A stretch of 64,000 nt of DNA from Escherichia coli O157 typing phage 13, in sequence record KP869111, one strand, 5' to 3'. Numbering within the stretch: the stretch's first letter is position 1; each line of letters opens with the position of its first letter. Below the pieces are notes generated by a model, which worked only from the letters and a program-made list of their open reading frames with translations, did no database searches and was not told where the DNA came from. Shown here one piece after another: positions 30,481 through 64,000 of the stretch. Position numbers and translations under genes: made by a program.

Positions 30481-30651
30481 TTAACCATTCAATTGCCTGG
30501 TCGACGTTATCAAATATACCGCCGTCCAAACGTTCTTCATGCTCATAGTCCAGCACATCAATACCGAACTGTCCATTTACTAAAGGCCAGGCTACAAACA
30601 AATATTCTTTATGCTGTTCGATGGCCTCAATCACTTCATATAATCGTTTCA

Positions 30652-30652
<1 letters not shown>
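30461..30652 (-). CDS. hypothetical protein, 63 aa
   Basis: ORF immediately downstream of pseT. Confidence 0.4.
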
Positions 30653-31716
<1,064 letters not shown>

Positions 31717-31739
<23 letters not shown>

Positions 31740-32040
31740 TATTTATTCCTAAGAAAGTTTCAAGAATACGAATGTTATGCTCGCGCCGGTCTTTATTAAT
31801 TTCAGCAACGTTTTTATTAATTGACGTACTTCTAACGTTTGAAGAAATAAATTTAATCATATGACTTTTGAGTTGTTGCAAATCCAACCCTTTTTCTTTA
31901 GCAGCTTTACGAAGAGCTTTACCTGCTTCATCTAGGGCCTTTGCCGCATCTTTGTCATAATTGACAAGTGACGACGTTCCACGACAGATATCAATATACT
32001 CATCAGACCGTTTGATGTAATTCTCTAGTAATGTTTTCAT
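31717..32040 (-). CDS. hypothetical protein, 107 aa
   Basis: ORF in the pseT-alc interval. Confidence 0.45.
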
Positions 32041-44737: not shown

Positions 44738-45383
44738 ATGGCCGACATCAAACGTAAGTTCAGAGCCGAAGACGGTCTGGACGCCGGTGGCGACAAGATT
44801 GTTAACGTAGCATTAGCCGACCGTACAGTAGGTACTGATGGCGTAAACGTTGACTTCCTGGTACAAGAAAACACCGTTCAAGTATATGATTCTACGCGTG
44901 GATATAACAAAGGATTTGTTGTTCTTTATGACAACCGTTTATATCAAGCAATAAATGATATCGTGTCTCCTTCCGGGGCATTTAACCTTTTACAATGGCG
45001 TGCAGTTCGTACCGATGCACAATGGATAACTGTCGCTTCTGGGACTTATCAACTTTCTTCAGGTGAATCTATTTCGGTTAACACTGGTGCCGGCAATGAT
45101 ATGGTTTTCACGTTGCCAAATACGCCGGTTGATGGTGATACTGTTGTTTTGGCTGATATTGGTGGAAGAACCGGGACAGTTAAAGTACAGATTAACGCGT
45201 CTGTGCAGAGTATTTTAAACTTTAGAGGTGAACAAGTTCGTACAGTTTTAATGACGCGCCCACGTTCACAACTATTGTTTGTGTTTAGTAATCGTTTGTG
45301 GCAGATGTATATTACCGATTATGGTAAAGAATCAATCACTGTTACACCTGCGACACCATATCAAGCACAAGCAAATGATTTTA
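44738..45383 (+). CDS. 34: long tail fibre proximal subunit gp34, N-terminal fragment truncated by an N-run
   Basis: first about 215 codons match the T4 gp34 N-terminus; sequence after the N-run is unrelated. Confidence 0.85.
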
Positions 45384-45483
45384 NNNNNNNNNNNNNNNNN
45401 NNNNNNNNNNNNNNNNNNNNNNNNNNNNNNNNNNNNNNNNNNNNNNNNNNNNNNNNNNNNNNNNNNNNNNNNNNNNNNNNNNN

Positions 45484-45582
45484 GCTACTATTGTTATCTC
45501 TCCGGCTGAAGAGACCGCACTGTTTAAAGCTAAGCATATTTCTGTAGCTCAGCTTAAAATTATTGCAAAAACTCTTCTGTAA
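45484..45582 (+). CDS. C-terminal fragment of an unidentified protein (5-prime part in N-run)
   Basis: open frame from the N-run to TAA, ...AKHISVAQLKIIAKTLL; not gp34. Confidence 0.25.
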   Translation, partial: ATIVISPAEETALFKAKHISVAQLKIIAKTLL

Positions 45583-45585
45583 GTA

Positions 45586-45616
45586 GTTTACATCTTGATA
45601 GGGCTATGTTATAGTA
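45586..45616 (+). promoter_or_regulatory. early promoter cassette with near-palindromic 28-mer (PeSL-like)
   Basis: GTTTACA, 18-nt spacer, TATAGT; inverted repeat GATAGGGCTAT / ATAGTAGTCCTATC. Confidence 0.55.
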
Positions 45617-45643
45617 GTCCTATCAAAACAAATAGAGTCCACA

Positions 45644-45883
45644 ATGATTTATTACGAAAGTATCGGAACCAAAGTGGTTGGTAAAACCATTACTCGTGAA
45701 AAGTTTGCAAAGATATTCGATATGCGTTATAAAAAATCTGAACACAAAGGCATCCGATTCGAAGATGCGCACTGTACAATTTGCCCTTATAATGAAGACA
45801 TAAACGGTACAATCGTTCCATTGGTAGAGGCTTCACATGATGACCTCTGGGATGAATATAATATCGCATGTCGTGAAATTTAA
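45644..45883 (+). CDS. hypothetical early protein, 79 aa
   Basis: ORF downstream of PeSL-like promoter. Confidence 0.5.
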   Translation: MIYYESIGTKVVGKTITREKFAKIFDMRYKKSEHKGIRFEDAHCTICPYNEDINGTIVPLVEASHDDLWDEYNIACREI

Positions 45884-45911
45884 GTTAATGAATTAATCCG
45901 AGGAAAATATT

Positions 45912-46903
45912 ATGATGTTAGTTATTGGTTCTCGTGCACTTCACTATCACGGTCTTATTGATTCTAGCGCTATTAAAAATAGTGATTGGGACTTTATTGC
46001 GGACCAAGGTTCTTGGAATGCATTCAAAAATCAAATGATGGGTGTATATGTTCACCAAGATAACCCTGATGTCCAAGTTTTCAAATGCTTCCATAATGGA
46101 CGCGAAACTCATTTTGAAGCATATATTGTTCCGGCAATCACTAATGTCCGTGAATTAGTCGGTGAACTCACTCCTGAAGATTTCACGTCTTCTTATGACC
46201 TTTTAAAATACGCCAAGAAAAATTTGACTAAAGACCGTTTGAACGGGTTTTACTGGGCAACTCCTGAGATATGTCTTGCAATTAAGATGTCTCATCGTTT
46301 CAAGAAAAATAATCCATTCTTTTTAAAGACTATGAACCATATTCAGTATCTTCGTGGTAAAGGTGTTACACTTAACGATGAACTTACTGAAATTATGCTG
46401 AAACGNNNNNNNNNNNNNNNNNNNNNNNNNNNNNNNNNNNNNNNNNNNNNNNNNNNNNNNNNNNNNNNNNNNNNNNNNNNNNNNNNNNNNNNNNNNNNNN
46501 NNNNNNNNNNNNNNNNNNNNNNNNNNNNNNNNNNNNNNNNNNNNNNNNNNNNNNNNNNNNNNNNNNNNNNNNNNNNNNNNNNNNNNNNNNNNNNNNNNNN
46601 NNNNNNNNNNNNNNNNNGAAGTTTGAATCACTTCCGGAAATGGTCAAATTGGCCGGTGTATATGAAGAAACATGTGTACTAGCGTTAGAACGTTCTCAGA
46701 TTCCTAATGGCTTTGAAATCCATCCTCGTGATAGTTTTATGATGGCATTAGAAAAGGTCTGTACTTCAATCACATCAGGCTGGTTCCGTGAGTATGCCTG
46801 GGAGAACTATGGCAAAGTAGTAAGTATGTATCAAAGCTTAGGACACGACGATTACGTCAAGCGTTTCAAACAAAATTTTCATATGGTAAAACCTTTCAAA
46901 TAA
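45912..46903 (+). CDS. hypothetical protein with possible nucleotidyltransferase-fold N-terminus (interrupted by N-run)
   Basis: N-terminal IGSRALHYHG...SDWDF resembles the GS...DxD pol-beta-type NTase motif; frame resumes after the 212-nt N-run. Confidence 0.45.
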
Positions 46904-46915
46904 TTTCACCAAACT

Positions 46916-46948
46916 GTTTACAAGGTCTGTAGTTGTTGATACTATAGA
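46916..46948 (+). promoter_or_regulatory. early-type promoter (GTTTAC box)
   Basis: GTTTACA, spacer, TACTATAG. Confidence 0.5.
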
Positions 46949-46961
46949 CCTATCAAAACAA

Positions 46962-47183
46962 ATGAGTGAATGGAGATACAAAATGACTACTTTGAATAAA
47001 CGTTTCGGTAAAGCTAAACCTGGCTGTGCAGCAGAACGTCGTTACATTTTCGCTCAGTTAGAAGATGTAGAGTATCAGATTAATCAAGTTCACATTACTG
47101 GCATCGAGCCTATGTGTGGCCTTGAAGCTCTTCGTGAAGTTCGTGACGGGTATCGTCGTGATATCGAAGAAATGTCAAAATAA
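46962..47183 (+). CDS. hypothetical early protein, 73 aa
   Basis: ORF downstream of early promoter. Confidence 0.45.
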   Translation: MSEWRYKMTTLNKRFGKAKPGCAAERRYIFAQLEDVEYQINQVHITGIEPMCGLEALREVRDGYRRDIEEMSK

Positions 47184-47184
47184 G

Positions 47185-47214
47185 TGTACAAACTGATAGG
47201 ACTATGTTATAGTA
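47185..47214 (+). promoter_or_regulatory. early promoter cassette (PeSL-like variant)
   Basis: GTGTAC -35 variant, TATAGT -10, inverted repeat GATAGGACTAT / ATAGTAGTCCTAT. Confidence 0.5.
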
Positions 47215-47241
47215 GTCCTATTAAAACATGAGGAGAATATT

Positions 47242-47341
47242 ATGAAATTAGGCGAAACCAACCGAATTGGTCTTTTAACAATATTTGTATCACTTTTTTA
47301 CGCAGCTCTTTCTGTTGCAGTATTACAAAAGGCTTACAGTA
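47242..47341 (+). CDS. N-terminal fragment of a putative membrane protein (runs into N-run)
   Basis: hydrophobic N-terminus MKLGETNRIGLLTIFVSLFYAALSV. Confidence 0.3.
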
Positions 47342-47441
47342 NNNNNNNNNNNNNNNNNNNNNNNNNNNNNNNNNNNNNNNNNNNNNNNNNNNNNNNNNNN
47401 NNNNNNNNNNNNNNNNNNNNNNNNNNNNNNNNNNNNNNNNN

Positions 47442-48971
47442 GAACGTGGTAATATCATGGCTGTTTATGGCGGTATTGTATATCCAATCGGAAGTGTTAT
47501 TAAAGAACAAACATGGATGATGACGCGATGCACTACAGCTTATATTAAATTCCCTATGGGTGAACTAGATGTAGCCCCGTCTCGTGAAGCATTGTCATTT
47601 GATAAACGTACAGTAGCAAATATCCATAAACGCGTTGCAGAAATCGATGCTAAATTGTTTGCTGAAGATTCTAAGAAATGGATTGATTGTAAATACCCAC
47701 GTCATGTGTTCCGTGAAATTGATTCTCTTGGCTATACCGCTCGTAAATACATGGAAAAGGCCGGGTCTAATATTGAATCACTGAAATACTCTAAAGAACA
47801 ACTAACTTATTCTGAGTTGTACAAACGTTTTAAAATGGGGCCTGAGTGGTGTAATCTTGGCGTCGTATACGATATCGTTGAATCCCCTCGTCTTCGTCGT
47901 ATTCGTGAAAGTGGTAGCTCATCATCAACCATTTCAATTAACAGCCTGATTGGCATTAACATTAAAAACGTTGAAATTGTTATTGACGACGTTAAGGGAC
48001 GCGTTCCATTAATGCGAGCTCTTAATTCAATTGAAATGTCTAAAGACGAGGTTAAATTAACTGGTAAAGTTCCACGTGGTTTTGGTAAAAGCGTACTATT
48101 CGTTGACCCTACAGACGAAGATGCAATGAAACTTCTGGAACGCCTTAAAGTTATCTTTGATGGCGACAACATTAACATGTACAAGACTTCAGAGCTTTTA
48201 CAAATCGTTAAGCCATGGATTGAAGTCAGGAAACGAACTAATGAGCCTCGTCCTAAATCCCCAAGTGCTCATCGGTTCTTTAAGAATGAAAATGATGTTT
48301 GGGTATCAGAAGATCTCTTTATTCCGGCAAGTGAAGCAGATGAAATCCAAGGTTATGCTATAGTTCGTAATCGTTCTAATGCTGAATGTCTTGACGCAGA
48401 TAAAGGTTGGTTGAATTATGATTCTAATTTCTTGACTCGTATTGCCGATTTGTCAGGTATTAAAGAGTTCACTGTAGTTCGCCCACAGATTGCTAAGAAA
48501 GTTCGTAAACTTGGTGAAGTAGAATGCTTGTTCGAAAAATCAATTAATGACTATATTACGCTAATTGATAAAGTGGATTATGATGAGTATGTATCACCAA
48601 GTCGTAGAGCACAGCCTTATTTGAATCATATTACTCGTAATGAAGAGCTTAACTTCCTTAGTAAGTATTTTAGCTCTAAGAACAAAGAAATCAGTAAAGA
48701 TTTTGCAAAACTTTCAACAGTAAATAATCGTTGGGGATGGAATCGATTCGCAGGTGCTGATAACAGAGACCTGAACAGGAAGTTAGAATTGTGTGCTAAA
48801 ATTTTCGATAAGCTTAAAGATAATGCTTACGATTATGATGATAAAATGGTTATTGAATTTGAAACCAATTATCATATTGTGTCAGAATACATGGGACGAC
48901 GTGGTACTCTTTCCAAAGAACAGGTCACTCAAATCGTTAAATTCATGAAGGCTGTGGAAGCAGCCAAATAA
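47442..48971 (+). CDS. rIIA: rIIA membrane-associated protein, C-terminal about 70 percent (5-prime part missing in N-run)
   Basis: frame open from the N-run; ...YGGIVYPIGSV...FPMGELDVAPSREALS matches the T4 rIIA mid-region; followed by rIIB. Confidence 0.85.
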   Translation, partial: ERGNIMAVYGGIVYPIGSVIKEQTWMMTRCTTAYIKFPMGELDVAPSREALSFDKRTVANIHKRVAEIDAKLFAEDSKKWIDCKYPRHVFREIDSLGYTARKYMEKAGSNIESLKYSKEQLTYSELYKRFKMGPEWCNLGVVYDIVESPRLRRIRESGSSSSTISINSLIGINIKNVEIVIDDVKGRVPLMRALNSIEMSKDEVKLTGKVPRGFGKSVLFVDPTDEDAMKLLERLKVIFDGDNINMYKTSELLQIVKPWIEVRKRTNEPRPKSPSAHRFFKNENDVWVSEDLFIPASEADEIQGYAIVRNRSNAECLDADKGWLNYDSNFLTRIADLSGIKEFTVVRPQIAKKVRKLGEVECLFEKSINDYITLIDKVDYDEYVSPSRRAQPYLNHITRNEELNFLSKYFSSKNKEISKDFAKLSTVNNRWGWNRFAGADNRDLNRKLELCAKIFDKLKDNAYDYDDKMVIEFETNYHIVSEYMGRRGTLSKEQVTQIVKFMKAVEAAK

Positions 48972-48980
48972 GGAAACATT

Positions 48981-49928
48981 ATGTACAATATCAAATGCTT
49001 GTCCCAAGAAGAACAGTTAGAAGCTTACGGCCTGGTTGAATCAGGCAAATGGACTCGTAAAGAAATTGCCGATTACTTCGACATTTCAACAGATACTCTT
49101 CGTAAGATTGTTAAGAATTTTAAAGCAGAAGGCGTTGTCCCTGAAGCAAACGATGCCTCTTATGTAATCGAAGAAGTTCCAGAAAATGATGAACCTATTA
49201 TCGGCGGACATCGTCCTGAAATCGTATGGAACGCGTCATCTAAATTTATTTCAATTATTGAAGGACGCGTAGCATACAATGCGACCCCATCAAGTCATGC
49301 AAATTTTGAAGAAATTAAAGCTAATCTGGTCGCAGGAAACCTTAGTAAAGCTGTCGAACTTATTAACATCAAGAAAGCTATTACTAAGTTTGTTGATGGT
49401 AATGTTACTATTGAAGGTGGTAGTTTATTTTATCAAGGTATAGAGATTCGTTCAGGGCTGGTTAACCGTATTATTGATTCCATGGAAAAAGGTGAAGACT
49501 TTAAATTCTATCTGCCATTCCTTGAAAACCTGTTAGAAAACCCAAGCGAAAAAGCTGTACAACGTTTATTCGACTTCTTGGTTGCAAACGATATTGAAAT
49601 CACTGAAGATGGGTATTTCTATGCATGGAAAGTAGTTCGTAAGGACTATTTAGACTGCTATAGTGGTACATTTGATAACTCCCCAGGTAAAGTTGTTTCA
49701 ATGCCTCGTACTCGAGTTAACGACGATGATACTCAAACCTGTTCTCGCGGTCTCCACGTTTGTGCTAAATCTTATATTCGCCACTTTGGTTCAAGCTCAG
49801 ATAAAGTTGTGAAGGTTAAAGTTCATCCACGTGATGTTGTATCCATCCCAGTTGACTATGGTGATGCTAAGATGCGTACTTGTCGTTATGAAGTAATTTC
49901 AGACGTTACTGAATTATTTGCAGAATAA
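48981..49928 (+). CDS. rIIB: rIIB protein
   Basis: 315 aa; MYNIKCL... matches T4 rIIB (312 aa). Confidence 0.9.
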   Translation: MYNIKCLSQEEQLEAYGLVESGKWTRKEIADYFDISTDTLRKIVKNFKAEGVVPEANDASYVIEEVPENDEPIIGGHRPEIVWNASSKFISIIEGRVAYNATPSSHANFEEIKANLVAGNLSKAVELINIKKAITKFVDGNVTIEGGSLFYQGIEIRSGLVNRIIDSMEKGEDFKFYLPFLENLLENPSEKAVQRLFDFLVANDIEITEDGYFYAWKVVRKDYLDCYSGTFDNSPGKVVSMPRTRVNDDDTQTCSRGLHVCAKSYIRHFGSSSDKVVKVKVHPRDVVSIPVDYGDAKMRTCRYEVISDVTELFAE

Positions 49929-49933
49929 TAATT

Positions 49934-49949
49934 GGGGACTTCGGTCCCC
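49934..49949 (+). terminator. hairpin GGGGACTTCGGTCCCC plus T-run after rIIB
   Basis: UUCG tetraloop hairpin followed by TTTTTTTT. Confidence 0.7.
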
Positions 49950-49971
49950 TTTTTTTTCTTTAGGGGTAATT

Positions 49972-50259
49972 ATGATTCATCCATTTGACGTATCAGAATC
50001 CAAAATTGCTAATCTTCGTGGTCATCATAAGTGTAAATCAGTTTATTGTGCTAAATTGGTAAAACATCCTGGCGATGCACACTATGGCTGGTTAGAATGT
50101 GACGAAGTTGTTATTGAAATCCCACCGGTAGATGCAGAATATCTTGAAGAAGGTGACCGCATTTATTTTGGCGAACTACACATTAGAGGTATCTATGGTA
50201 AAGACGAACTTGGGACTGTTGAGGCTGAAGAGTCTTCCGACATTTATCCTGTCGAATGA
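49972..50259 (+). CDS. hypothetical protein, 96 aa
   Basis: ORF after rIIB; start set at first ATG after the terminator. Confidence 0.45.
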   Translation: MIHPFDVSESKIANLRGHHKCKSVYCAKLVKHPGDAHYGWLECDEVVIEIPPVDAEYLEEGDRIYFGELHIRGIYGKDELGTVEAEESSDIYPVE

Positions 50260-50275
50260 GTTTTTGACTAGCGAA

Positions 50276-50752
50276 ATGAAGGTTAAGATCGCTGATACTG
50301 CTCGGTACTCGTTGAAACAAGATCCAGGTCAAATAAAAGAAGACGTTGTTCGACGTTGTAAGGTTGCAGTCTTTGCAGAGTATGTAGTAGCAAATTGGCT
50401 AGACGGATATGTTAATAAAGGTAATGAAGACGTAGAAGACCCGTACACGTATGCATGGGACGTTTTAGCTCATCCTAAGTACTGTGGTCTACGCGTAGAA
50501 GTAAAGACCCATCAGATGGATTCGAAATGGATTTCGGTTACCACAGGATACGGTGGTGATTATCCAGGTGGCAACGGAATCAACATAGGGCCCTTCTTGA
50601 ACCATCGAGTCGCAGATTGCATTATTATATTAGATGTCAAAGAAACCTCACCTGACGTCTTCTCTTATTCTATAAAGTTCGTGGGAGACCATGAAGACCT
50701 AAAGAAAATCGTCCGCAAGAGCAACTACAACGGGTGGTATCTTCATCTTTAA
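50276..50752 (+). CDS. hypothetical protein, 158 aa (position where T4 has denB; identity not confirmed)
   Basis: start set at internal ATG just after the previous stop; synteny only. Confidence 0.4.
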   Translation: MKVKIADTARYSLKQDPGQIKEDVVRRCKVAVFAEYVVANWLDGYVNKGNEDVEDPYTYAWDVLAHPKYCGLRVEVKTHQMDSKWISVTTGYGGDYPGGNGINIGPFLNHRVADCIIILDVKETSPDVFSYSIKFVGDHEDLKKIVRKSNYNGWYLHL

Positions 50753-50764
50753 TTTCATAAAAGT

Positions 50765-50795
50765 GTTTACAACTAAGTAGGACTATGATATAGTA
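50765..50795 (+). promoter_or_regulatory. early promoter cassette (PeSL-like)
   Basis: GTTTAC, spacer, TATAGT with flanking inverted repeat GTAGGACTAT / ATAGTAGTCCTAT. Confidence 0.5.
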
Positions 50796-50820
50796 GTCCT
50801 ATCTAAAAGAGGATAACATC

Positions 50821-51084
50821 ATGAAATTTAAATTTTTCTACGCAAAACATAAAGTAACAGGCGAATTTGTTTCAATGTACAACACTGCAGATGACGAAGG
50901 GATGATTTATACCCATTTGGGTCTATCTCATTGGGACTCAGACGTGCCTTATATGTCATCTGAAGCCGAAATAACTCGTTTAGTTAATGGACATATGAAC
51001 GACCATTTTAGTGTTATCCTTTCTAAAGACCTTAAAGAGGTTATCAACAAAGGATATATGGAACTCGCGGAAGTTGAGATATGA
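50821..51084 (+). CDS. hypothetical early protein, 87 aa
   Basis: ORF downstream of promoter cassette. Confidence 0.45.
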   Translation: MKFKFFYAKHKVTGEFVSMYNTADDEGMIYTHLGLSHWDSDVPYMSSEAEITRLVNGHMNDHFSVILSKDLKEVINKGYMELAEVEI

Positions 51085-51276
51085 GCTCTAAAATGTGGAT
51101 CGGAATATGGTTGCTTAGTATCCCAATGATTTGTATAATATTTTCAATTGTGTTGAGGTACTTATGAAAAATGCACTTCTTATTGTACTAAGATCAATTT
51201 GTGATACGGGTTTTTACATTGCATGTTCGTTCACTGGAACATGGTTGGCTTTAACATATTTTAATGTAATTTAATT

Positions 51277-51307
51277 GTTTACAACAAGGTAGGATTATGG
51301 TATAGTA
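51277..51307 (+). promoter_or_regulatory. early promoter cassette (PeSL-like)
   Basis: GTTTAC, spacer, TATAGT with inverted repeat GTAGGATTAT / ATAGTAGTCCTAC. Confidence 0.5.
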
Positions 51308-51334
51308 GTCCTACTGAAACATGAGGAACACAAA

Positions 51335-51535
51335 ATGGCTAAGCTTTTTAAAGATGTTGAAATTGGTGAAAAATTTGTTCTGAATAATGGTCAGCAGCTT
51401 ATTCGTGTAGCTTCTATCGCCGGACAAACTCATAACTGTATCGCCCCAACGTGTTGGACTCGATTTTTTATTGAAGATGACACTGAATGTTTAACTGTTG
51501 AAGAGCTTTTTGAACGTTCTGATATGACCGAATAA
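51335..51535 (+). CDS. hypothetical early protein, 66 aa
   Basis: ORF downstream of promoter cassette. Confidence 0.4.
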   Translation: MAKLFKDVEIGEKFVLNNGQQLIRVASIAGQTHNCIAPTCWTRFFIEDDTECLTVEELFERSDMTE

Positions 51536-51537
51536 AA

Positions 51538-51569
51538 TTGTACAAACTCTTGAGAGCAGAGTATAATGC
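51538..51569 (+). promoter_or_regulatory. early-type promoter (TTGTAC -35, TATAAT -10) with flanking inverted repeat
   Basis: TGAGAGCA...TGCTCTCA palindrome around the TATAAT. Confidence 0.45.
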
Positions 51570-51611
51570 TCTCATGGATTACAAAAACATTAATCAATTG
51601 AGGAAATTAGC

Positions 51612-52058
51612 ATGTCCAAATATTTAACTCGTAAAGACCTTCTGGCAGTTGGCGGTGAAGTTGTTGCAGTAGTTCGTAATGGCGAATACGGTTCTGAAGT
51701 TTCTAAAGAGTTTCGTTCTCGTGAAGGTTTTTACTTCTTTGTTAAAGGTTCATCTGATTGGCGACAAGTAGCAGCACGATTCTTTGTAGGACGTCAACGT
51801 TCTAAACAAGGGTTGGATGCAATTCTTTCTCACATTCGTCAAGGCCGTTCGCAACTAGCCCGTACCATGGGCACTAATAATATTGAATATGATGTAATCT
51901 TTGTTGCAGCTAAGAACATGAAACCACTGACCACCGGTTATGGTAAAGGTCAATTGGCTCTGGCATTCACTCGCAACCATACATCAGAATATCAAACACT
52001 CACTGAAATGAACCGTCTTCTGGCTGATAATTTCAAATTCATTCTGCAGAGTTACTAA
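51612..52058 (+). CDS. ndd: nucleoid disruption protein Ndd
   Basis: 148 aa; ...[30 protein letters not shown]...[13 protein letters not shown] matches T4 Ndd. Confidence 0.8.
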
Positions 52059-52111
52059 TTTATACAGGCCCTATTAAGTTAGGCCTTTAATTTATTTTTG
52101 AGGTAATTAAA

Positions 52112-52258
52112 ATGGTAGCATGGATTATTGCATTGCTGTGTTGGTCGTTTTTATTCGTTAACACTTTAGTTACAGGCGAAACAACAGTATTTCAACAGGC
52201 CGTATCACAAGGTACCTTAGCGGTCTTAGCTCTTATTAACGTGTTAAAAGGCGAGTAA
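52112..52258 (+). CDS. small hydrophobic membrane peptide, 48 aa
   Basis: ORF below size cutoff with a single transmembrane-like segment; T4 has small ORFs ac, stp and 52.1 here. Confidence 0.3.
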   Translation: MVAWIIALLCWSFLFVNTLVTGETTVFQQAVSQGTLAVLALINVLKGE

Positions 52259-52398
52259 TGATTAAGAAAATCTTAGCAGGAGCCTTCGGGCTCTTGTTGT
52301 TGCTTACGGTTCTGTACTACGGTGTGATGTTTGGACTAATCCAAGTAGTGCTTTTCATTTCAGATGTTATAATGGATATTCGTTCATTAATATGGTGA
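52258..52398 (+). CDS. small hydrophobic membrane peptide, 46 aa
   Basis: ORF overlapping the previous stop (TAATG); hydrophobic core. Confidence 0.3.
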   Translation: MIKKILAGAFGLLLLLTVLYYGVMFGLIQVVLFISDVIMDIRSLIW

Positions 52399-52402
52399 AA
52401 AT

Positions 52403-53811
52403 ATGCAATTGAATTCTCGTAATCTAAAAAGTATTATTGATAACGAAGCCTTAGCATATGCGATGTACACCGTTGAAAACCGTGCAATCCCAAACATGAT
52501 TGATGGATTTAAGCCGGTTCAACGTTTTGTGGTCCATCGTGCGTTAGATTTGGCTCGTGGTAATAAAGAAAAATTTCATAAACTTGCGTCAATTGCAGGC
52601 GGTGTTGCAGATTTAGGTTATCACCATGGTGAATCTTCTGCACAAGATGCAGGTGCATTGATGGCTAACACATGGAACAACAACTATCCACTGTTAGATG
52701 GCCAAGGCAACTTTGGTTCTAGAACAGTCCANNNNNNNNNNNNNNNNNNNNNNNNNNNNNNNNNNNNNNNNNNNNNNNNNNNNNNNNNNNNNNNNNNNNN
52801 NNNNNNNNNNNNNNNAAAGCTGCAGCATCTCGTTATATTTTTGCTCGTGTAAGTAAAAATTTCTATAACGTATATAAAGATACTGAATATGCTCCAGCTC
52901 ATGAAGATAAAGAACACGTTCCACCAAAATTCTATCTTCCTATTATTCCGACAGTTCTTTTGAATGGTGTATCTGGTATTGCAACCGGTTACGCAACAAA
53001 TATTCTGCCTCATAGTTTTAAATCGGTAAAAAAGGCTGTATTACAAGCTCTTCAAGGTAAAAATGTCACTAAGCCAAAAGTTGAATTCCCGGAATTCCAT
53101 GGTGAAGTACATGAAGTTGATGGGCGTTATGAGATTCACGGAACATATAAGTTCACATCTCGCACTCAAATGCAGATAACTGAAATCCCATATAAATTCG
53201 ACCGTGAAACGTATGTGAGTAAGGTTCTTGACCCGTTGGAAGACAAAGGTCTAATCTCATGGGAAGATGATTGTGGTGAACACGGCTTTGGGTTTAAGGT
53301 GAAGTTCCGTAAAGAGTACTCGCTTCCTGATGATGAAGAGCTACGTCATGAAAAAATCATGAAAGATTTTAGTCTCATCGAACGTCGTTCACAAAACATC
53401 ACAGTGATTAATGAAAAGGGTAAATTAGCAGTCTACGATAACGTAGTGGACTTAATCAAAGATTTTGTTGAAGTCCGTAAGACTTACGTTCAGAAACGTA
53501 TTGACAACAAAATCCTTGAATCTGAAAAAGCATTTAAACTGGCTTTTGCTAAGGCACACTTCATCAAAAAAGTTATCAACGGTGAAATCGTGATTCAGGG
53601 CAAGACTCGTAAAGCTTTGACTGAAGAGCTAGCACAAATCGAAATGTATAAAGAACATGTCGATAAACTGGTAGGTCTTAACATCTTCCATATCACTTCC
53701 GATGAAGCACGTAAACTAGCAGAAGAAGCTAAAGCTAAGAAAGAAGAAAATGAGTATTGGAAGTCTACTGATGTTGTGACAGAGTACACTAAAGACTTGG
53801 AGGCACTTTGA
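52403..53811 (+). CDS. 52: DNA topoisomerase II medium subunit gp52 (interrupted by N-run)
   Basis: IPNMIDGFKPVQRFV GyrA-type motif; both flanks of the N-run match T4 gp52; frame differs across the N-run. Confidence 0.9.
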
Positions 53812-53887
53812 GTGCTATAGCCTTAGGATTTCTCGGTGCAATAGCTGTACTAGTGATTTGGCTGTATTGGTTGGACAAACATGATTA

Positions 53888-53903
53888 GGGAGCTTCGGCT
53901 CCC
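53888..53903 (+). terminator. hairpin GGGAGCTTCGGCTCCC plus T-run
   Basis: UUCG tetraloop hairpin downstream of gene 52. Confidence 0.6.
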
Positions 53904-53918
53904 TTTTGTGCATTTTTC

Positions 53919-53950
53919 TCACAAAACAGTTTACATGCGCTTCAATCATG
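53919..53950 (+). promoter_or_regulatory. early-type promoter (GTTTAC box) for motA
   Basis: GTTTACA, spacer, TATTATAG. Confidence 0.5.
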
Positions 53951-53996
53951 ATATTATAGACCTATCAAAACAAAACAACCAAATTGGAGAAATAAA

Positions 53997-54629
53997 ATGT
54001 CTAAAGTTACTTACATCATCAAAGCTTCTGAAAACGCTCTGAATGAAAAAACTGCTGCAATAATGGTTTATATCATTAAGAACAACTTCACCACTGCTGC
54101 CAATGTCCGTGAAGCTCTGGAAGCAGAATACAATGCATCAGTTGTTAACTCTAACATTGGTGTATTGATTAAGAAAGGTTTAGTCGAAAAATCTGGTGAT
54201 GGACTTGTGGCAACCGGCGAAGCAATGGATATTATCCAAAAAGCTGCAGACCTATTTGCTCAAGAAAATGCTCCAGAACTTCTTCAGAAACGTAACACCA
54301 GAAAAGCACGTGGAGTTACTCCTGAAATGCATGAATTAGCAAACTTTGTTTTTGAAAATATTAAAGATAAAGTTGAAGTTAAAGAAATTGGTGAAAACCG
54401 TAGTAACTTAGAAGTTCGATTTGCAAAACGAGTTCTAGGCATTCGCCAAATTGAAATTCGACGAGATGGCGCTCTTAGAATCTTTGCATACAACATGTCA
54501 GAAACTGAATCAAAGCTGTTTACTTCTCTTGAAAATGATGTTAAGATTAAGATCGGTGGTAAATATACTTACATTGACTTCCCTAATGTGTCCAAAGAAA
54601 TCATTACCCTTGTAACTAACGTACTGTGA
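53997..54629 (+). CDS. motA: middle-transcription activator MotA
   Basis: 210 aa; MSKVTYIIKAS...NSNIGVLIKKGLVEKSGDGL matches T4 MotA. Confidence 0.9.
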   Translation: MSKVTYIIKASENALNEKTAAIMVYIIKNNFTTAANVREALEAEYNASVVNSNIGVLIKKGLVEKSGDGLVATGEAMDIIQKAADLFAQENAPELLQKRNTRKARGVTPEMHELANFVFENIKDKVEVKEIGENRSNLEVRFAKRVLGIRQIEIRRDGALRIFAYNMSETESKLFTSLENDVKIKIGGKYTYIDFPNVSKEIITLVTNVL

Positions 54630-54639
54630 GGAATACGTA

Positions 54640-54969
54640 ATGAATAAGCTGAATATTATTAACGAACTTCGTAAATGTGCAGAACCTACTCAGGAAGGAT
54701 GGGATATTTGGTACCACGGTGCTTATTTAGGGACAATTGTAAAGATTAAAGCAGGCCAATATACGGTTATTCGTGAAAATAATGACGCGCCATTTGGTCT
54801 TCGTAAAAACTACATGGCAGCGATCAGTTCGTTTGTTGATGCAGCTTACGAAATCTATAAAGAAGATTATAAAGAGTATCAGCAGTCACAACCGGTTATT
54901 CGTTCGATTGGTGTAAATAAACAAGCACAAAAATCTATTTGGCAACGTATTAAGGAATGGTTTAAATGA
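54640..54969 (+). CDS. hypothetical early protein, 109 aa
   Basis: ORF in the motA-asiA interval. Confidence 0.45.
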
Positions 54970-55427
54970 AATCATTTAAAGAACGTTTAGAGCTATTAGA
55001 TTTGGCCTTGTCTCGTGAGACTCCTGAAAGTCTAGCAGAAAAATTCCAGTCCTACGGTTATAATTATTCTGCTGATGATATAATGAATGAAGTTCCTGAA
55101 ATCTGTTGGCAAACGTGCTATTGGAACAATGACCAAAAAGTTCAACGTGTTATAGTATGTGCAGCTAATAGGTTTAAATTGAAGAGCGGTGGAACTCTGG
55201 TTATTCCTGGAGTTCGTCATTACTCTAAAGATATGGCTGAAGTACTTGATATAGTTGGTCCTCAATTAGTCTCGCAACAAGTTTGTGGCGATGACCAAGG
55301 CTTTATCGACCAATACTCTAATTACTGGACTCGTGAAGAAGCAATGATTATTGCAACATATGCTGGACAGGTACGTATTGAACGTGGCGGAAGTGAGAAA
55401 GAACTTTATTCAGAGGACCTTTATTAA
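54966..55427 (+). CDS. hypothetical early protein, 153 aa
   Basis: ORF overlapping neighbours by 4 nt and 1 nt. Confidence 0.5.
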
Positions 55428-55708
55428 TGAATATTAAACAACTCCAGAAAGATGCTATTGAATCACGTATCCAAGATATCAAACGTCTTAATCATATGAT
55501 GGAAGAAAACTATGGTATGTATGCTAATCAGCCTGGTTGGGATGCTTTAGACCATCCTTATTTGGTTAATTTATGTAAAGGTGATACGTTAGCAATTATT
55601 CGTGATGGGTTAAAACCTTTCTTGCGTGACATGTATATTAAAATGAACGAAGAAATTATTAGCTCGTTGCAATATCAATTAAGGAAATTAGATGATGAGA
55701 ATAATTGA
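55427..55708 (+). CDS. hypothetical early protein, 93 aa
   Basis: ORF in the motA-asiA interval. Confidence 0.45.
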   Translation: MNIKQLQKDAIESRIQDIKRLNHMMEENYGMYANQPGWDALDHPYLVNLCKGDTLAIIRDGLKPFLRDMYIKMNEEIISSLQYQLRKLDDENN

Positions 55709-55910
55709 TTCTAAAGCGGATTATTTTAATTCTGTTAATGATAAGAATAAAGCTTTAATTCGCCACTTTATTACTGAGATGGGATATACCGACTCTAAAG
55801 ATTTGAAAGAGCACATTATCGAATGTTCTGTGGCTAAAAAGTTTTCTTTCACAGACAAATGTTTAAACGAGGTTATAAATCATTATGAACAATCTTGTAG
55901 CAAAACATGA
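55692..55910 (+). CDS. hypothetical early protein, 72 aa
   Basis: ORF in the motA-asiA interval. Confidence 0.4.
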   Translation: MMRIIDSKADYFNSVNDKNKALIRHFITEMGYTDSKDLKEHIIECSVAKKFSFTDKCLNEVINHYEQSCSKT

Positions 55911-55993
55911 TTTCAATAAGGCTTCTGTCCATAAGGACAAGAAGAAATCAGAACTTCAATCTAAACGCAAACAAAAACATAAGGGTAAAGACT

Positions 55994-56293
55994 ATGCTTA
56001 CTAAAATCAAAGAAAATCCTGCCACTGAACTTGTTATTCGATGTGAAGAACTTGCAGAGCTTTATCAGGTTAACCGAGAAGTGTGTCGTAGTGTTATCGT
56101 AGATATGGCAGACGAAGTATGTTCTCGTATTCCTTTTAGTGTCGATTTCAATCACATGAAGCCTGGTGAAATCACTATCGTCTTTGGTTCTGACTATACT
56201 GAAGAACGGGCTCTTAATGTCCTAGAATATGAAATGTCATTCTTCGACATACAGGACTACATTGATAGTTATAAGGAACAATATGAGTCATAA
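55994..56293 (+). CDS. hypothetical acidic early protein, 99 aa (Arn-like by position only)
   Basis: start set at internal ATG with upstream AAGGG Shine-Dalgarno; acidic composition. Confidence 0.4.
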   Translation: MLTKIKENPATELVIRCEELAELYQVNREVCRSVIVDMADEVCSRIPFSVDFNHMKPGEITIVFGSDYTEERALNVLEYEMSFFDIQDYIDSYKEQYES

Positions 56294-56444
56294 TCTTCAG
56301 AACGTAGTAGAGGCCGAACGTGAGCGTGAGGCTTTAGTCTATAATGAACTATTAGTTCCATTCTTGGCCTTACACTCGTATGAACAGGAAGACTACATTG
56401 ATTACGTTAAAAGCGTAGAAAAAGCCGTTTACAATCAACACTGA
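56283..56444 (+). CDS. hypothetical small protein, 53 aa
   Basis: ATG overlaps the previous stop; below size cutoff. Confidence 0.3.
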   Translation: MSHNLQNVVEAEREREALVYNELLVPFLALHSYEQEDYIDYVKSVEKAVYNQH

Positions 56445-56490
56445 TAATGGTACTATATCCATATCAACTAAGTGGAATGAATAAAACGTT

Positions 56491-56763
56491 ATGAATAAAG
56501 ACATTGAAATCGTACGTGAAATTATTACTATTGCTTCTATTTTGATTAAATTCTCTAGGGAAGATATTGTTGAAGACCGAGCAAGTTTCATCGGATTCTT
56601 GAATGAGATTGGAATTAAAAAAGATGGTCGGCAGCTAAATCAGAATTCGTTCAGAAAACTAATTACAAATTTAACTGCCGAAGAAAAGAAAACACTGATT
56701 AGTGAATTCAATGAAGGTTTTGAAAATATTTATCGTCATTTAGCGATGTATTCTAACAACTAA
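56491..56763 (+). CDS. asiA: anti-sigma-70 factor AsiA
   Basis: 90 aa; MNKDIEIVREIITIASILIKFSREDIVE... matches T4 AsiA. Confidence 0.9.
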   Translation: MNKDIEIVREIITIASILIKFSREDIVEDRASFIGFLNEIGIKKDGRQLNQNSFRKLITNLTAEEKKTLISEFNEGFENIYRHLAMYSNN

Positions 56764-57423: not shown

Positions 57424-57432
57424 AATACCTCC

Positions 57433-57984
57433 TTACTTAAAGATATTTATAATCGCTTTGATAATAGATTTGTTTTCAAGGTCAGGGAATTTAGGGAATT
57501 CGCCGCCAAGATGTTCATGTTTTTCTAAAAGGGCAAAGAATTTTTTGAGCTCTTTAAATTTTCGTTTTTCTTCTCTACTAGCAACCTCTGCGTCAATAAG
57601 AGAACTTAAAACACTGAATAATTTATAGAGTTCATGAATTTTCTTATCACGTTGAACTACGCGTTTATATGCTTCATCTTCCTTCCACCCGTCGTCGGTC
57701 CAAATGTCAAATTCACCGGGTTCTTCTGTAGTAACATTTTGAAGAGCACCTGGAGTGTCAATAACAATTTTTTGCTTATCATAAGTCCATACCGTTTTTC
57801 CACGATGGTCTTCAACATATACCCATTCTTGCTCGCGTTCGTCAAATATAACAGCATAGCCTTCTTTAGGGTCTAAAGGTTTTTTTGGTGTCGAATGAGC
57901 CGGAAATCCTACGCCTTTTAATGGTTTATAATTTTCTTCTTTGTAAAATTCTTTAGTGTCAAAATAATAGTGATAGAGTTTCAT
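57433..57984 (-). CDS. 38: gp38, tail fibre assembly chaperone (T4-type)
   Basis: start set at MKLYHYYFDTKEFYKEENYKP giving 183 aa as in T4 gp38. Confidence 0.85.
   Translation of the reverse strand: MKLYHYYFDTKEFYKEENYKPLKGVGFPAHSTPKKPLDPKEGYAVIFDEREQEWVYVEDHRGKTVWTYDKQKIVIDTPGALQNVTTEEPGEFDIWTDDGWKEDEAYKRVVQRDKKIHELYKLFSVLSSLIDAEVASREEKRKFKELKKFFALLEKHEHLGGEFPKFPDLENKSIIKAIINIFK
57444..57451 (-). promoter_or_regulatory. late promoter (TATAAATA on minus strand) for holin t
   Basis: exact reverse-complement TATAAATA 21 nt upstream of the t start codon. Confidence 0.5.
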
Positions 57985-57995
57985 ATTATAAAAAA

Positions 57996-58009
57996 GGGAC
58001 ATAAGTCCC
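57996..58009 (-). terminator. hairpin GGGACATAAGTCCC between genes 37 and 38
   Basis: stem-loop followed by a T-run on the minus transcript; sits between gene 37 stop and gene 38 start. Confidence 0.5.
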
Positions 58010-58015
58010 TTCTCC

Positions 58016-61000: not shown

Positions 61001-61498
61001 GTTAAAGACCCAGTGTTTAGAATTGTCTGGAGCTGTAGAATCAATATAATGAACTCTAAATGAGCCTTCGCTTACTAATGTACCTACTGAAAAAGTACCG
61101 TCTTTATAACGTTGCTTAATCAAAGGGTGGTATTCAGAAGTTGAAGTAGTTGAACTCAAATCTGTAAAGATAGGGGCTTTATTTGTGTGTTGGTTAGCCC
61201 AAGCGCCATTTCCAGCAGTTTTTGGCAAGAATTCAATATACTTTCCTGCATAAACAAACTGGTTTCCATTAAGATTATACGTGCCGTTTTGTAAATAATC
61301 ACCATTTTGAGTTACATTACCGTTAATATCCCCGCCCTTAGCAAAGCCTAGGCTAATAATATTACCGAGGTCATCTTTAGTAAAAAGAGTTCGATCTTTT
61401 AAGTTTATCGCTAATTCGCCTTCGGCTAATTGTGCTGCAGTAGGATTAACTCCTGCTACTTTGCTTCTTTTAAATTGTATCTGTTTTAATGTAGCCAT
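58016..61498 (-). CDS. 37: long tail fibre distal subunit gp37 (receptor-binding), contains two N-runs
   Basis: 1160 aa; C-terminal HxH repeat region ending ...[15 protein letters not shown] as in T4 gp37. Confidence 0.9.
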
Positions 61499-61506
61499 AA
61501 GTCCTC

Positions 61507-62172
61507 TTAATAATAGCCGAAATCTTGAACAGAATCTTTAATTACAATCTGGTCGAAACGAGGAACATGATTAGCCTCAGACGCCGGATTCTGTGAGAAA
61601 AAGTTTGGTGCTGTTAAAGTACCAGTCATGGTATCGCCTTTACGCAATACACGGGAATTTGCGTTATCCGTAACAATATTTATTCGTCCATCAACATAAT
61701 CTTTTCTAGTAAGGTCATTCGCTGCTATAGGAGCAGCCGCATCACTTCTTACTTGACCAGCTGCCGACACAACGCCTTTTGTATTAATATCACCATTACG
61801 TGTATTAATTACTACAGTTCTACCCGCTGTTCCTTGTGATGATTTAAAACCAATACCATACCACGAAACAATATCAATATTTGCTGTAACAAAAGTAGCT
61901 GCATCTCCATTACCAGGATAAATACCAGATTGATTTGTATTGTTTATAGCATATGGTATTTGAACACCGCCGTTAAATGTTACCTTTGATGCATAAGTAC
62001 CACCATTTGCTTTAGAAACGAAATCATTATCAGCAGCTTGTGGCTTATTATATTCTGAATAGAGTTTAAACGTTTTATACAGGACGTCATCACCTGCTGG
62101 CATTAAAGGGAAATTACCTTGATGCCATATAACGGCACCGCCAGTTGTACTACCAGCTTTTAAATCGGCCAT
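61507..62172 (-). CDS. 36: long tail fibre distal connector gp36
   Basis: 221 aa as in T4 gp36. Confidence 0.85.
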
Positions 62173-62196
62173 AGTTGTCTCCTTATATGTATACCA

Positions 62197-62204
62197 TATT
62201 TATA
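62197..62204 (-). promoter_or_regulatory. late promoter (TATAAATA on minus strand) for gene 36
   Basis: exact reverse-complement TATAAATA between the terminator hairpin and the gene 36 start. Confidence 0.45.
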
Positions 62205-62211
62205 CAAAAAT

Positions 62212-62229
62212 GGGAGACCGAAGTCTCCC
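62212..62229 (-). terminator. hairpin GGGAGACCGAAGTCTCCC after gene 35
   Basis: identical 18-mer to 26450 and 41434. Confidence 0.6.
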
Positions 62230-62234
62230 TAAAT

Positions 62235-63426
62235 TTATTCTGGTGCTTCTTTAAATTCTTGACCAAATACCTTACCAGTATCAGTTGAAGATTGAGTAGG
62301 TAATGTCATTATGTCTGGAGCACTTAAAGATTCTGAAACATAATTTACACGAATACCATTCGTACCAAACTCAGCAGGTTTTGAAACGCTTCCATTACAT
62401 GATACTTCAGTGAATATAACGTTTCTTAATCCACCTTGCCCGACTGGAGCTGTACGATAACAATAAATCGTGAACCCGTCAGCACCAGCAGGAATTTCTA
62501 CGTAGTCTTCATATATCTTCCATTCACCTGCAGCCCCATCAAAGTTTATATCCTTAAATGAAATAGGTGAAGTAGAAGGAGATTTAAAGAAACGAATAGA
62601 AAGTCGTGTCGTCCCTTGTGCTAACAAATCGGCATCGGCCATTAGTTGGAATTTCATATAAAGGAAATCTCCAGGCTTCAATTTATACCCAGCGAGAGGT
62701 GTAATAACAGATGCTGTAGGCATCCTTTTAATTTCGTTATTAGTACCTCCAATGGCAGATAAAAATGTGTCTGACGATTCATACGTACGTCTAGGGAAGC
62801 CGGTAGCACCAATATCATCGATCGTGTCGTACACAACATCAAGTGGTGTACTATAGTCGGTTGAAGTTTTCTTATTACTATACTTAATATGTTCTAGTGC
62901 TATAGCATTCTTACCAGAAATATAAAATGCAGAATAAGAAATGTCCACTATATTTAAAACTTGTTGAGCTAATGGAATAGCAGAACTCCCAGCTTTAGTA
63001 AACCATGCAAGAACTTCTGGTGGAAAGTTTGTTTTAGCGTTAGTAACAAGAGCAAATATAAAATTTGAAGCATATGTGTCCATGAAAGTAACAAATGCAC
63101 TTGACGTGGCGTCGTTTTCAGTAGAGAAATTATATGTCTTAGATTCAACTACTGCACCTGTTGTAGGATTTATTACACGAACGTTTAATCCAACGGAAAA
63201 AACCTGGGACCCAAGTGGATTATCCTGGAACTTAATATAAGCAGGAGATGTTGATNNNNNNNNNNNNNNNNNNNNNNNNNNNNNNNNNNNNNNNNNNNNN
63301 NNNNNNNNNNNNNNNNNNNNNNGGGCAAGAGCCCGCTATGCTTAATTTAAATCGTACTGAATTGCTTTCCGATAAAAATGGCGTTTGGACGTATCCTTGT
63401 CCAAACTTAGCCATAAATTTTTCCAT
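62235..63426 (-). CDS. 35: long tail fibre hinge connector gp35 (interrupted by N-run)
   Basis: N-terminus MEKFMA... and C-terminal part both match T4 gp35; frame offset across the N-run. Confidence 0.85.
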
Positions 63427-63434
63427 AATACCTC

Positions 63435-64000
63435 TTATTCAATCCACTCGAATTTAACAGATTTATTCACAGGGTCTGGAATAATGCGGACATTACCAAT
63501 CCTTAAGAAATCCCTTATTGTCAAGTTTCCGATTGTTGCATTATCAGAAGGTAAAGCACCAATATCAGATGGCTGAGGAGGGTTACCCCCATCAAATACT
63601 TGAACAAAACTTGACCAAGAATTTTTAGTTTTCTGCCATGTACGAGTCCAACGGGTTGTACGTGCTTCTGGGGTTGTTGGATAAGTAATCCAATCTTGGT
63701 AAAGTGAATCAAGTGTATTACCAAACTGAGTCAATGTACCAGGAGATTTAACTTCTTCGCCACGTTCTAAGTATGGAAGCCCAGTCACTTCATTAGTTTT
63801 TTCAACCATTTTAAAATAACCTGGGAACTGGTTATAAGTGGCTGAATCGTTAATATCAATTGACCAGAATCCTACATTATCAGATGTTGGCGCACGGGTA
63901 TATAAATCGGATGTTTTAGTACCCTGAGAACGAATTCTCGAGTTAACAGTCAAACCGCCAGAATTTATAGTAGCACCATTGGCAATGATTAAGCCTTCAC
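63435..64000 (-). CDS. 34: long tail fibre proximal subunit gp34, C-terminal fragment (gene continues beyond window)
   Basis: final about 170 codons match the T4 gp34 C-terminus (...DPVNKSVKFEWIE). Confidence 0.9.
   Translation of the reverse strand, partial: EGLIIANGATINSGGLTVNSRIRSQGTKTSDLYTRAPTSDNVGFWSIDINDSATYNQFPGYFKMVEKTNEVTGLPYLERGEEVKSPGTLTQFGNTLDSLYQDWITYPTTPEARTTRWTRTWQKTKNSWSSFVQVFDGGNPPQPSDIGALPSDNATIGNLTIRDFLRIGNVRIIPDPVNKSVKFEWIE

Follow-up and report, generated by a model that had tools for sequence, protein, structure and literature searches.

By NCBI submission convention, a gap of unknown length is written as a spacer of 100 N. Draft records concatenated with such spacers have non-neighbouring flanks and truncated genes on both sides of a spacer, and their pieces stand in arbitrary order and orientation. 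The gaps within their scaffolds are irregular and of estimated length. T4-type genomes are circularly permuted and terminally redundant, which gives a circular assembly graph and a record that can be opened anywhere. Inverted tail-fibre genes are known from the Mu G and P1 C systems, in which the serine invertases Gin and Cin swap alternative C-termini. In T4, gp34 is needed for long tail fibres and hence for infectivity. The use of 100 N as a common spacer where the gap length is unknown is described elsewhere (PMC8360199). For the E. coli O157 typing phages, the reads of one pooled MiSeq run were put through VelvetOptimiser at k 90-120, which gave 1-7 contigs per phage (PMC4429339).

The window analysed here is the whole 64,000-nucleotide stretch of E. 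coli O157 typing phage 13 (KP869111). The ~20-kb inversion that splits its gene 34 is very probably an artefact of scaffold concatenation with 100-N spacers, as judged by comparison with sibling records and assembled reads. The phage itself almost certainly has an ordinary T4-type gene order.

Source of the window and its relatives

The window represents draft sequence from a coliphage of the RB69-like type (Mosigvirus). Every stretch between its N-runs agrees with two E. coli O157 typing phages of the species Mosigvirus 0157tp3, namely typing phage 3 (TP3, KP869101) and typing phage 6 (TP6, KP869104), at 100% identity or only a few bases short of this. There is 1 substitution relative to TP6, and there are 1 gap and 3 substitutions relative to TP3, with the gene 34 fragments 100% identical to both. 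These records come from the same project and the same assembler, but they are single contigs in canonical order that open inside gene 34, whereas the window consists of several scaffolds. The window probably belongs to the assemblies that Cowley et al. 2015 produced with Velvet.

Gene names were taken from the RefSeq annotation of APCEc01 and from Pfam lists. Two contigs of the read-only Logan assemblies were central to the analysis, namely L041 (SRR1391165, 9131 nt) and L042 (SRR1391162, 8593 nt). These runs are tied to the typing-phage project by SRA run numbering and 100% identity only. The project paper contains no table of runs, and the numbers follow no evident order by individual typing phage.

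N-runs and scaffold joins

There are eight N-runs in the window and, as stated in the initial annotation, two of them are exactly 100 nt long (45384-45483 and 47342-47441). The following features mark the split of gene 34 and the joins.

44738..45383, + strand: gene 34 nt 1-646 (proximal subunit of the long tail fibre), end of scaffold A; identical in L041, 100% to TP3 and TP6
45384..45483, no strand: 100-N spacer, join 1, scaffold A/scaffold B; flanks are gene 34 nt 646 and the ipI 3' end
46406..46617, no strand: 212-N within-scaffold gap; TP3 has 177 nt there
47342..47441, no strand: 100-N spacer, join 2, scaffold B/scaffold C; flanks are TP3 83786 and TP3 149951
63435..64000, - strand: gene 34 nt 3311-3876, made up of the 188 C-terminal codons and the stop codon; the final 566 nt of gene 34 in L041 are identical

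Both runs of exactly 100 nt have flanks that are not neighbours in the relatives, and those of join 1 lie ~66-81 kb apart in TP3, TP6 and APCEc01. All six irregular runs have colinear flanks. Spacer length is fixed at both non-colinear joins and distinct from that of the colinear gaps (67-212 N). For eight runs, the chance that the split by length matches the split by colinearity is 1/28. Each rearrangement breakpoint lies on an N-run, and both joins are pure N without any junction sequence.

The irregular runs of 67-212 N replace only 1-177 nt of TP3, TP6 or APCEc01 (84 N for 1 nt, 119 for 2, 87 for 3, 67 for 3, 118 for 66 and 212 for 177). Five of them lie inside 44738-64000 and are ordinary within-scaffold gaps. 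Logan contigs span the runs at 58420-58538 (L034) and 63256-63322 (L019), and the run at 59018-59104 is spanned only by TP3 and TP6.

These lengths bear on the idea that the N-runs are post-assembly masks of real sequence and that the written order is real, which we regard as vanishingly improbable. The presence of Ns, and nothing more, speaks for it. Masking in the pipeline was rejected because the run lengths do not match the sequence replaced, as in the case of 84 N standing for a single nucleotide. In addition, a 100-nt mask has no room for the 684 nt missing from rIIA or the 2664 nt missing from gene 34.

Gene 34

Window positions 1-45383 make up scaffold A, whose sequence is colinear with TP6 114849-160179. 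It had been noted at the outset that the gp34 N-terminus is on the + strand at 44738-45383 and the C-terminus on the - strand at 63435-64000. Both placements are accurate, and the two fragments are exact parts (nt 1-646 and 3311-3876) of one intact 3876-nt gene that is present in L041 and in the sibling records. The 1291-aa product of the L041 ORF matches PF21446 (Gp34_trimer) and PF21560 (Gp34_2nd) and, by these matches, the split gene is that of gp34, the proximal subunit of the long tail fibre. Gene 34 continues beyond the window end, and a Logan contig (L019) reaches 163 nt past position 64000.

Contigs L041 and L042, which were recovered with gp59 as a query more lineage-specific than RNase H, each carry (36')-35-34-rnh-dsbA-33-59-32-frd2 on one contig with gene 34 intact (1291 aa). 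A third Logan contig was flagged as similar to these two. Both L041 and L042 are 100% identical to both gene 34 fragments of the window, and they join the separated pieces canonically, from window 45383 to window 64000. In L041, positions 4659-9131 correspond to window 45383 to 40911 and positions 1-1994 to window 61943-64000, each at 100%. The 2664 nt that separate these matches are the middle of gene 34, which is absent from the window. The initial annotation had offered as one alternative that contigs were joined the wrong way round with 100-N placeholders, and the intact gene 34 of these read-only assemblies bears this out.

The same arrangement is found more widely. In all ten places listed, which are contigs with an identical RNase H (long contigs of other phages), t-38-37-36-35-34 adjoins rnh and gp34 is 1277-1292 aa long. 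Furthermore, in the TP3 and TP6 records the two ends share 288-298 nt of gene 34 sequence (nt 741-1028/1037), and gene 34 is therefore continuous there.

Gene 34 nt 883-893 are discordant between record ends and between runs. Scaffold A ends at gene 34 nt 646, which is outside the zone of contig ends in TP3 and TP6 (nt 741-1037). A discordant or polymorphic site at about nt 883-893 may be the reason why the graph was opened within this gene during assembly. Internal repeats of gene 34 were considered as a cause of the break and rejected, because those of APCEc01 are only 44-48 nt long with 79-86% identity and are too short to matter at k >=90.

Scaffold C

The third piece extends from rIIA to gene 34 and includes the following genes.

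47442..48971, + strand: rIIA nt 685-2214, start of scaffold C; TP3 149951-151480, within rIIA 149267-151480; RIIA of APCEc01
48981-49928, + strand: rIIB
51612-52058, + strand: ndd
52403-53811, + strand: gene 52, topoisomerase subunit, with an 84-N run at 52732-52815
53997-54629, + strand: motA, with small ORFs between it and asiA
56491-56763, + strand: asiA
56764-57423, - strand: t, holin
57433-58002, - strand: gp38, tail-fibre assembly
58016-61498, - strand: gene 37, with N-runs at 58420-58538 and 59018-59104 that replace 2 and 3 nt
61507-62172, - strand: gene 36
62235-63426, - strand: gene 35, with an N-run at 63256-63322 that replaces 3 nt

Scaffold C starts at 47442 with rIIA, rIIB, ndd, 52, motA and asiA on the + strand and continues with t, 38, 37, 36, 35 and the C-terminal part of 34 on the - strand. 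When reverse-complemented, it shows the canonical order of APCEc01, TP3 and TP6. Window 48981..56763 is colinear with TP3 151490-159189 at 100% identity. Thus, the earlier description of the entire block as the reverse complement of the T4 order is correct from 47442 onwards, but does not apply to 45484-47341, which is scaffold B and derives from a distant region.

The first 684 nt (228 codons) of rIIA are absent from the window. These were initially thought to be missing within the run at 47342-47441, but 684 nt cannot fit in 100 N, and the 5' cut of rIIA is therefore a scaffold end. Logan contigs obtained by rIIB look-up begin within rIIA at window 47518, 47849 and 47850, and none crosses rIIA nt 685. 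On the basis of TP3, TP6 and relatives only, rIIA is predicted to be continuous across this position.

Scaffold B

The piece between the two 100-N spacers contains part of the ipI-e hyperplastic region.

45484..47341, + strand: scaffold B, 1.86 kb, ipI-e hyperplastic region; matches TP3 and TP6
45484-45582, + strand: ipI 3' end
45586-45631, + strand: PeSL-like promoter/stem-loop
45644-45883, + strand: 79-aa gene
45912-46903, + strand: 318-aa DUF7277/DUF7275 gene, interrupted by Ns
46983-47183, + strand: 66-aa gene
47242-47341, + strand: 101-aa gene, first 100 nt only

Window 45484-45631 matches TP6 85534-85387 at 100%, and window 45585-47341 matches TP3 82065-83786 at 99.6-100%. In all ten places listed, this gene set is located upstream of nudE/e (NUDIX, lysozyme). 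Judging from these neighbours, scaffold B is unrelated to the inverted block and belongs elsewhere in the genome. The ipI-e region of TP3 is ~6.9 kb longer than scaffold B implies, whereas TP6 lacks the scaffold B genes. The region is present in differing deletion forms in TP3, TP6 and the window.

A genuine rearrangement as an unlikely alternative

A genuine ~19-kb inversion with breakpoints in gene 34 and rIIA, and with the 1.86-kb ipI-e piece translocated into one of them, would agree with the layout present in the sequence as written, but we consider it extremely unlikely. Three independent breakpoints would be needed, each located exactly on a placeholder N-run, and a foreign mini-scaffold (scaffold B) lies at one supposed breakpoint. 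The written orientation breaks reading frames, cutting gene 34 at nt 646 and rIIA at nt 685, and the event would truncate gene 34 (essential for tail fibres), rIIA, ipI and the 101-aa gene. There is no inverted or direct homology above 12 nt, on either strand, among the ends of gene 34, rIIA and scaffold B, and homology of <=12 nt is at chance level, leaving the supposed ends without inverted homology. No resolvase or recombinase is found in the Pfam matches for the genes from dda to gene 37 (L031) or from 34 to frd2, and no invertase or recombinase is annotated in APCEc01, TP3 or TP6, such that a recombinase family is absent from both the matches and the annotations. Moreover, gene 34 is intact in near-identical siblings and in three read-only contigs, and the order is canonical in 10 of the 10 relatives listed. 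The other alternative of the initial annotation, a real inversion of about 20 kb, is contradicted by a gene 34 that is intact and flanked by 35 and rnh in the read-only assemblies, the canonical siblings, the missing inverted homology and the foreign mini-scaffold.

Similarly, there is very little chance that a ~19-kb inversion with its ends in gene 34 and rIIA, together with a translocated ipI-e fragment, is truly present in this typing-phage stock or a sub-population of it, with the junctions hidden by the 100-N runs. Genomes inverted in this way would give no long tail fibres and would depend for their persistence on complementation by co-infecting wild type. A minority of rearranged, defective genomes whose junctions were caught by the assembler is likewise highly improbable. 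Hints of heterogeneity, namely the discordance at gene 34 nt 883-893 and the differing ipI-e deletion forms of TP3, TP6 and the window, are compatible with such a minority. However, the junctions consist of Ns only and nothing is assembled across them, whereas a captured junction would be represented by sequence.

Proposed assembly model

We therefore regard concatenation of scaffolds as the very probable source of the written order. The window would be a multi-scaffold short-read draft whose scaffolds were strung together with 100-N spacers, in arbitrary order and orientation. Scaffold A terminates within gene 34, and scaffold C, from rIIA to gene 34, would be its true successor but entered as the reverse complement. 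The 1.86-kb scaffold B would have been inserted between them. The true order would then be rnh | 34-35-36-37-38-t | asiA...motA-52...ndd...rIIB-rIIA, with gene 34 intact at 3876 nt.

The significance of this explanation is one of quality control only. Read at face value, the record shows a structural variant and a split gene 34 that are both false, along with truncated gene models for rIIA, ipI, 35, 52 and 37. These false models would enter comparative and host-range analyses of the O157 typing phages. With its pieces re-ordered, the genome would show canonical synteny and be ordinary for an RB69-like phage.

Comparison with known systems

The likeness of the window to the Mu G and P1 C systems is superficial and is limited to inverted tail-fibre genes. 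Unlike these systems, the window has neither an invertase gene nor inverted crossover sites. Its apparent inversion destroys the fibre gene instead of exchanging C-termini, and it also covers 19 kb including early genes. Circular permutation of T4-type genomes is consistent with a record opened in gene 34. However, permutation shifts the start point only and never the relative orientation, and the flip in the window would thus stem from the concatenation step. Draft records concatenated with 100-N spacers offer the closest likeness. The window has the same non-neighbouring flanks, the same genes truncated on both sides, the same arbitrary order and orientation and the same irregular gaps within scaffolds, and it is an ordinary instance of such a record in which nothing differs.

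Organization of the gene 34 fragments

The initial annotation described a split gene 34, with its N-terminus on the + strand, its C-terminus on the - strand and a reversed rIIA-to-35 block between them, and this layout is present as judged by exact gene 34 matches and colinearity. From 47442, the window is colinear with typing phage 3 (TP3, KP869101; 149951-166161) and with the RB69-like relative APCEc01 (15567-31865), and relative to the gene 34 N-terminus this block carries the canonical order as its reverse complement. The claim that everything between the fragments is inverted holds from 47442 but not for 45484-47341, which is distant material from the hyperplastic ipI-e region.

Features of the rearranged part of the window
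44738-45383, +, exactly gene 34 nt 1-646
45484-47341, ipI 3' end and intergenic element, then (by match to TP3 82065-83786) 79-aa gene, 318-aa DUF7277/DUF7275 gene, 66-aa gene and start of a 101-aa gene
47442 onward, +, rIIA (from nt 685), rIIB, ndd, 52, motA and asiA, by colinearity with TP3 and APCEc01
after asiA, -, t, 38, 37, 36, 35 and 34, by the same colinearity
63435-64000, -, exactly gene 34 nt 3311-3876

Two kinds of N-runs

There are eight N-runs in the window.

N-runs of the window
24751-24868, 118 nt, irregular, stands for 66 nt
45384-45483, 100 nt, between gene 34 nt 646 and the ipI 3' end
46406-46617, 212 nt, irregular, stands for 177 nt
47342-47441, 100 nt, between nt 100 of the 101-aa gene and rIIA nt 685
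52732-52815, 84 nt, irregular, stands for 1 nt
58420-58538, 119 nt, irregular, stands for 2 nt
59018-59104, 87 nt, irregular, stands for 3 nt
63256-63322, 67 nt, irregular, stands for 3 nt

In TP3, typing phage 6 (TP6, KP869104) or APCEc01, the sequences on either side of each of the six irregular runs are colinear, and contigs assembled from raw SRA reads (Logan) span three of the six with exactly 1, 2 and 3 nt. From these alignments, the irregular runs are over-long gap estimates within scaffolds. Only at the two 100-nt runs are the flanking sequences nowhere adjacent. Writing 100 N for a gap of unknown length is an NCBI submission convention. Such a spacer is common between unlinked scaffolds (PMC8360199). 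It follows that the window consists of scaffold A (1-45383), scaffold B (45484-47341) and scaffold C (47442 to past 64000), with a 100-N spacer at each join. The proposal that the two 100-nt runs are placeholders holds; the remaining N-runs there differ from them in having colinear flanks. Nor does the missing N-terminal part of rIIA lie within 47342-47441, because the absent 684 nt are too long for 100 N.

The irregular runs also displace the reading frame in genes 52 and 35 and in the 318-aa gene. Gene 37 stays in frame across its N-runs by chance, yielding a false 1160-aa ORF in place of the real 1093-aa product.

Gene 34 is intact in other assemblies

A lineage-specific gp59 protein, used as the look-up query for contigs, retrieved just the records of TP3 and TP6 plus three Logan contigs of 5-10 kb (two shown, the third flagged as similar). 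L041 (SRR1391165) and L042 (SRR1391162) each carry (36')-35-34-rnh-dsbA-33-59-32-frd2 within a single contig, and gene 34 is an unbroken ORF of 3876 nt (1291 aa) matching Gp34_trimer and Gp34_2nd. Window 45383 back to 40911 equals L041 4659-9131, and window 61943-63255 and 63323-64000 equal L041 1-1313 and 1317-1994, all at 100%. The 2664 nt missing from the middle of gene 34 lie between these parts. Therefore, gene 34 connects window positions 64000 and 45383 head-to-head. By this sequence evidence, the real neighbour of scaffold A is scaffold C, which has been entered the wrong way round. The SRA runs behind the Logan contigs are tied to the typing-phage project by run numbering, exclusive gp59 sharing and 100% identity rather than by metadata.

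The final 1037 nt of the TP6 record are gene 34 nt 1-1037 and its first bases are nt 741 onward, giving a 298-nt overlap with two mismatches; TP3 is alike, with a 288-nt overlap. Both single-contig assemblies close on themselves within gene 34. In addition, t-38-37-36-35-34 adjoins rnh in all ten places shown among contigs encoding an identical RNase H (NCBI, ENA and Logan), where gp34 is 1277-1292 aa long. The Logan contigs stop short of rIIA nt 685, so continuity at that point rests on TP3, TP6 and relatives.

As 'complete genome' records, TP3 and TP6 carry this 288-298-nt terminal duplication with 2-3 mismatches at gene 34 nt 883, 884 and 893, and they annotate the gene only as a 943-aa 'hypothetical protein'.

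Scaffold B

The first 148 nt of 45484-47341 comprise the ipI 3' end and a downstream intergenic element (100% to TP6 85534-85387), and the remainder equals TP3 82065-83786. In TP3, TP6 and APCEc01 this region lies tens of kb (~66-81 kb) from gene 34 and rIIA.

In scaffold B, the ipI 3' end is fused straight to the 79-aa gene (junction 45586-45631) via an element resembling a promoter/stem-loop (PeSL), which consists of TTTACA, 17 nt and TATAGT overlapped by the inverted repeat GATAGG...CCTATC. The crossover falls within a 35-nt core common to the copy downstream of ipI and that upstream of the 79-aa gene, with ~6.9 kb lost relative to TP3 (75027-82075). In the corresponding part of TP6 (84947-85534), a different PeSL copy links an 87-aa gene to the 101-aa gene, leaving TP6 ~8.2 kb shorter than TP3. 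On sequence grounds, both junctions resemble deletion variants produced via PeSL (PMC2839356, PMC4122927) in typing phages that otherwise barely differ. Because k and the read length both far exceed the 35-nt core, the reads themselves probably contain the scaffold B junction.

Relationship to the other typing phages

By megablast against public phage records, all stretches between N-runs are identical to, or a few bases different from, TP3 and TP6 (species Mosigvirus 0157tp3), and against further RB69-like phages such as APCEc01, mar005P1 and p000y the window shows 94-99% identity. It is distinct from both TP3 and TP6 because of scaffold B, and is presumably the phage 13 record (KP869111). 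The source study of TP3 and TP6 (Cowley et al. 2015, PMC4429339) placed typing phages 3, 6, 7 and 13 in one group, with 6 and 13 as the closest pair, pooled the libraries on one MiSeq run, and assembled them by VelvetOptimiser (k 90-120) into '1 to 7 contigs for each phage'.

Within 47442-52731, one base differs from TP6, and TP3 and the shorter SRR1391162 and SRR1391172 contigs agree with the window. The SRR1391165 contig also has one mismatch to the window in this stretch, which suggests that this run may be the phage 6 library. Runs SRR1391162, SRR1391163, SRR1391165 and SRR1391172 all hold sequence 100% identical to the window's Mosigvirus, whereas this type is represented by three typing phages only (3, 6 and 13), with phage 7 (KP869105) filed as Tequatrovirus. 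Library cross-talk on the pooled run, or mixed stocks, could account for this count.

Candidate causes of the assembly breaks

T4-type genomes are circularly permuted, which makes the assembly graph circular, with its opening at the weakest point. The two ends of the TP3 record, and likewise of TP6, are mutually discordant near gene 34 nt 883-893, where nt 884 is T or G between L041 and L042 (G in relatives). Perhaps this is a polymorphic or error-prone site where assemblies open; a high-k de Bruijn graph would be broken at such a site. The variation might come from index cross-talk between near-identical phages pooled on one run, and true gaps of 1-3 nt beneath irregular N-runs would fit unresolved variant bubbles. 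However, scaffold A stops somewhat upstream, at nt 646, and the variant site leaves this exact position unexplained.

rIIA (47442-47850) is a further place where several independent assemblies end, and some property of the typing-phage libraries breaks assemblies there too.

Assembly ends within rIIA
47442, scaffold C
47518, SRR1391165
47850, SRR1391162
47849, SRR1391172

Artefact or genuine inversion

Of the two explanations initially offered, contigs joined in the wrong orientation with 100-N placeholders is supported by L041 and L042, by the TP3 and TP6 ends and by all ten identical-RNase H places. The apparent inversion is almost certainly a concatenation artefact of an ordinary multi-scaffold draft and not a real feature. 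A genuine rearrangement in the typing-phage stock or a sub-population, disrupting gene 34, retains a very small residual probability. Gene 34 is intact elsewhere, and the ends of gene 34, rIIA and scaffold B share no inverted or direct homology beyond chance (maximum 12 nt). Recombinase families are absent from the Pfam matches and annotations of the block. Moreover, the arrangement as written would truncate rIIA, ipI, the 101-aa gene and also gene 34, which T4 long tail fibres require. A real event would need three breakpoints, every one coinciding exactly with a placeholder. The joins contain no junction sequence, and thus nothing was truly assembled across them.

Membership among invertible tail-fibre segments is likewise ruled out, all three defining traits having been tested and found absent. 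In contrast to the Mu G and P1 C segments, the block lacks inverted crossover sites and an invertase, and it does not maintain functional ORFs in both orientations as those two segments do.
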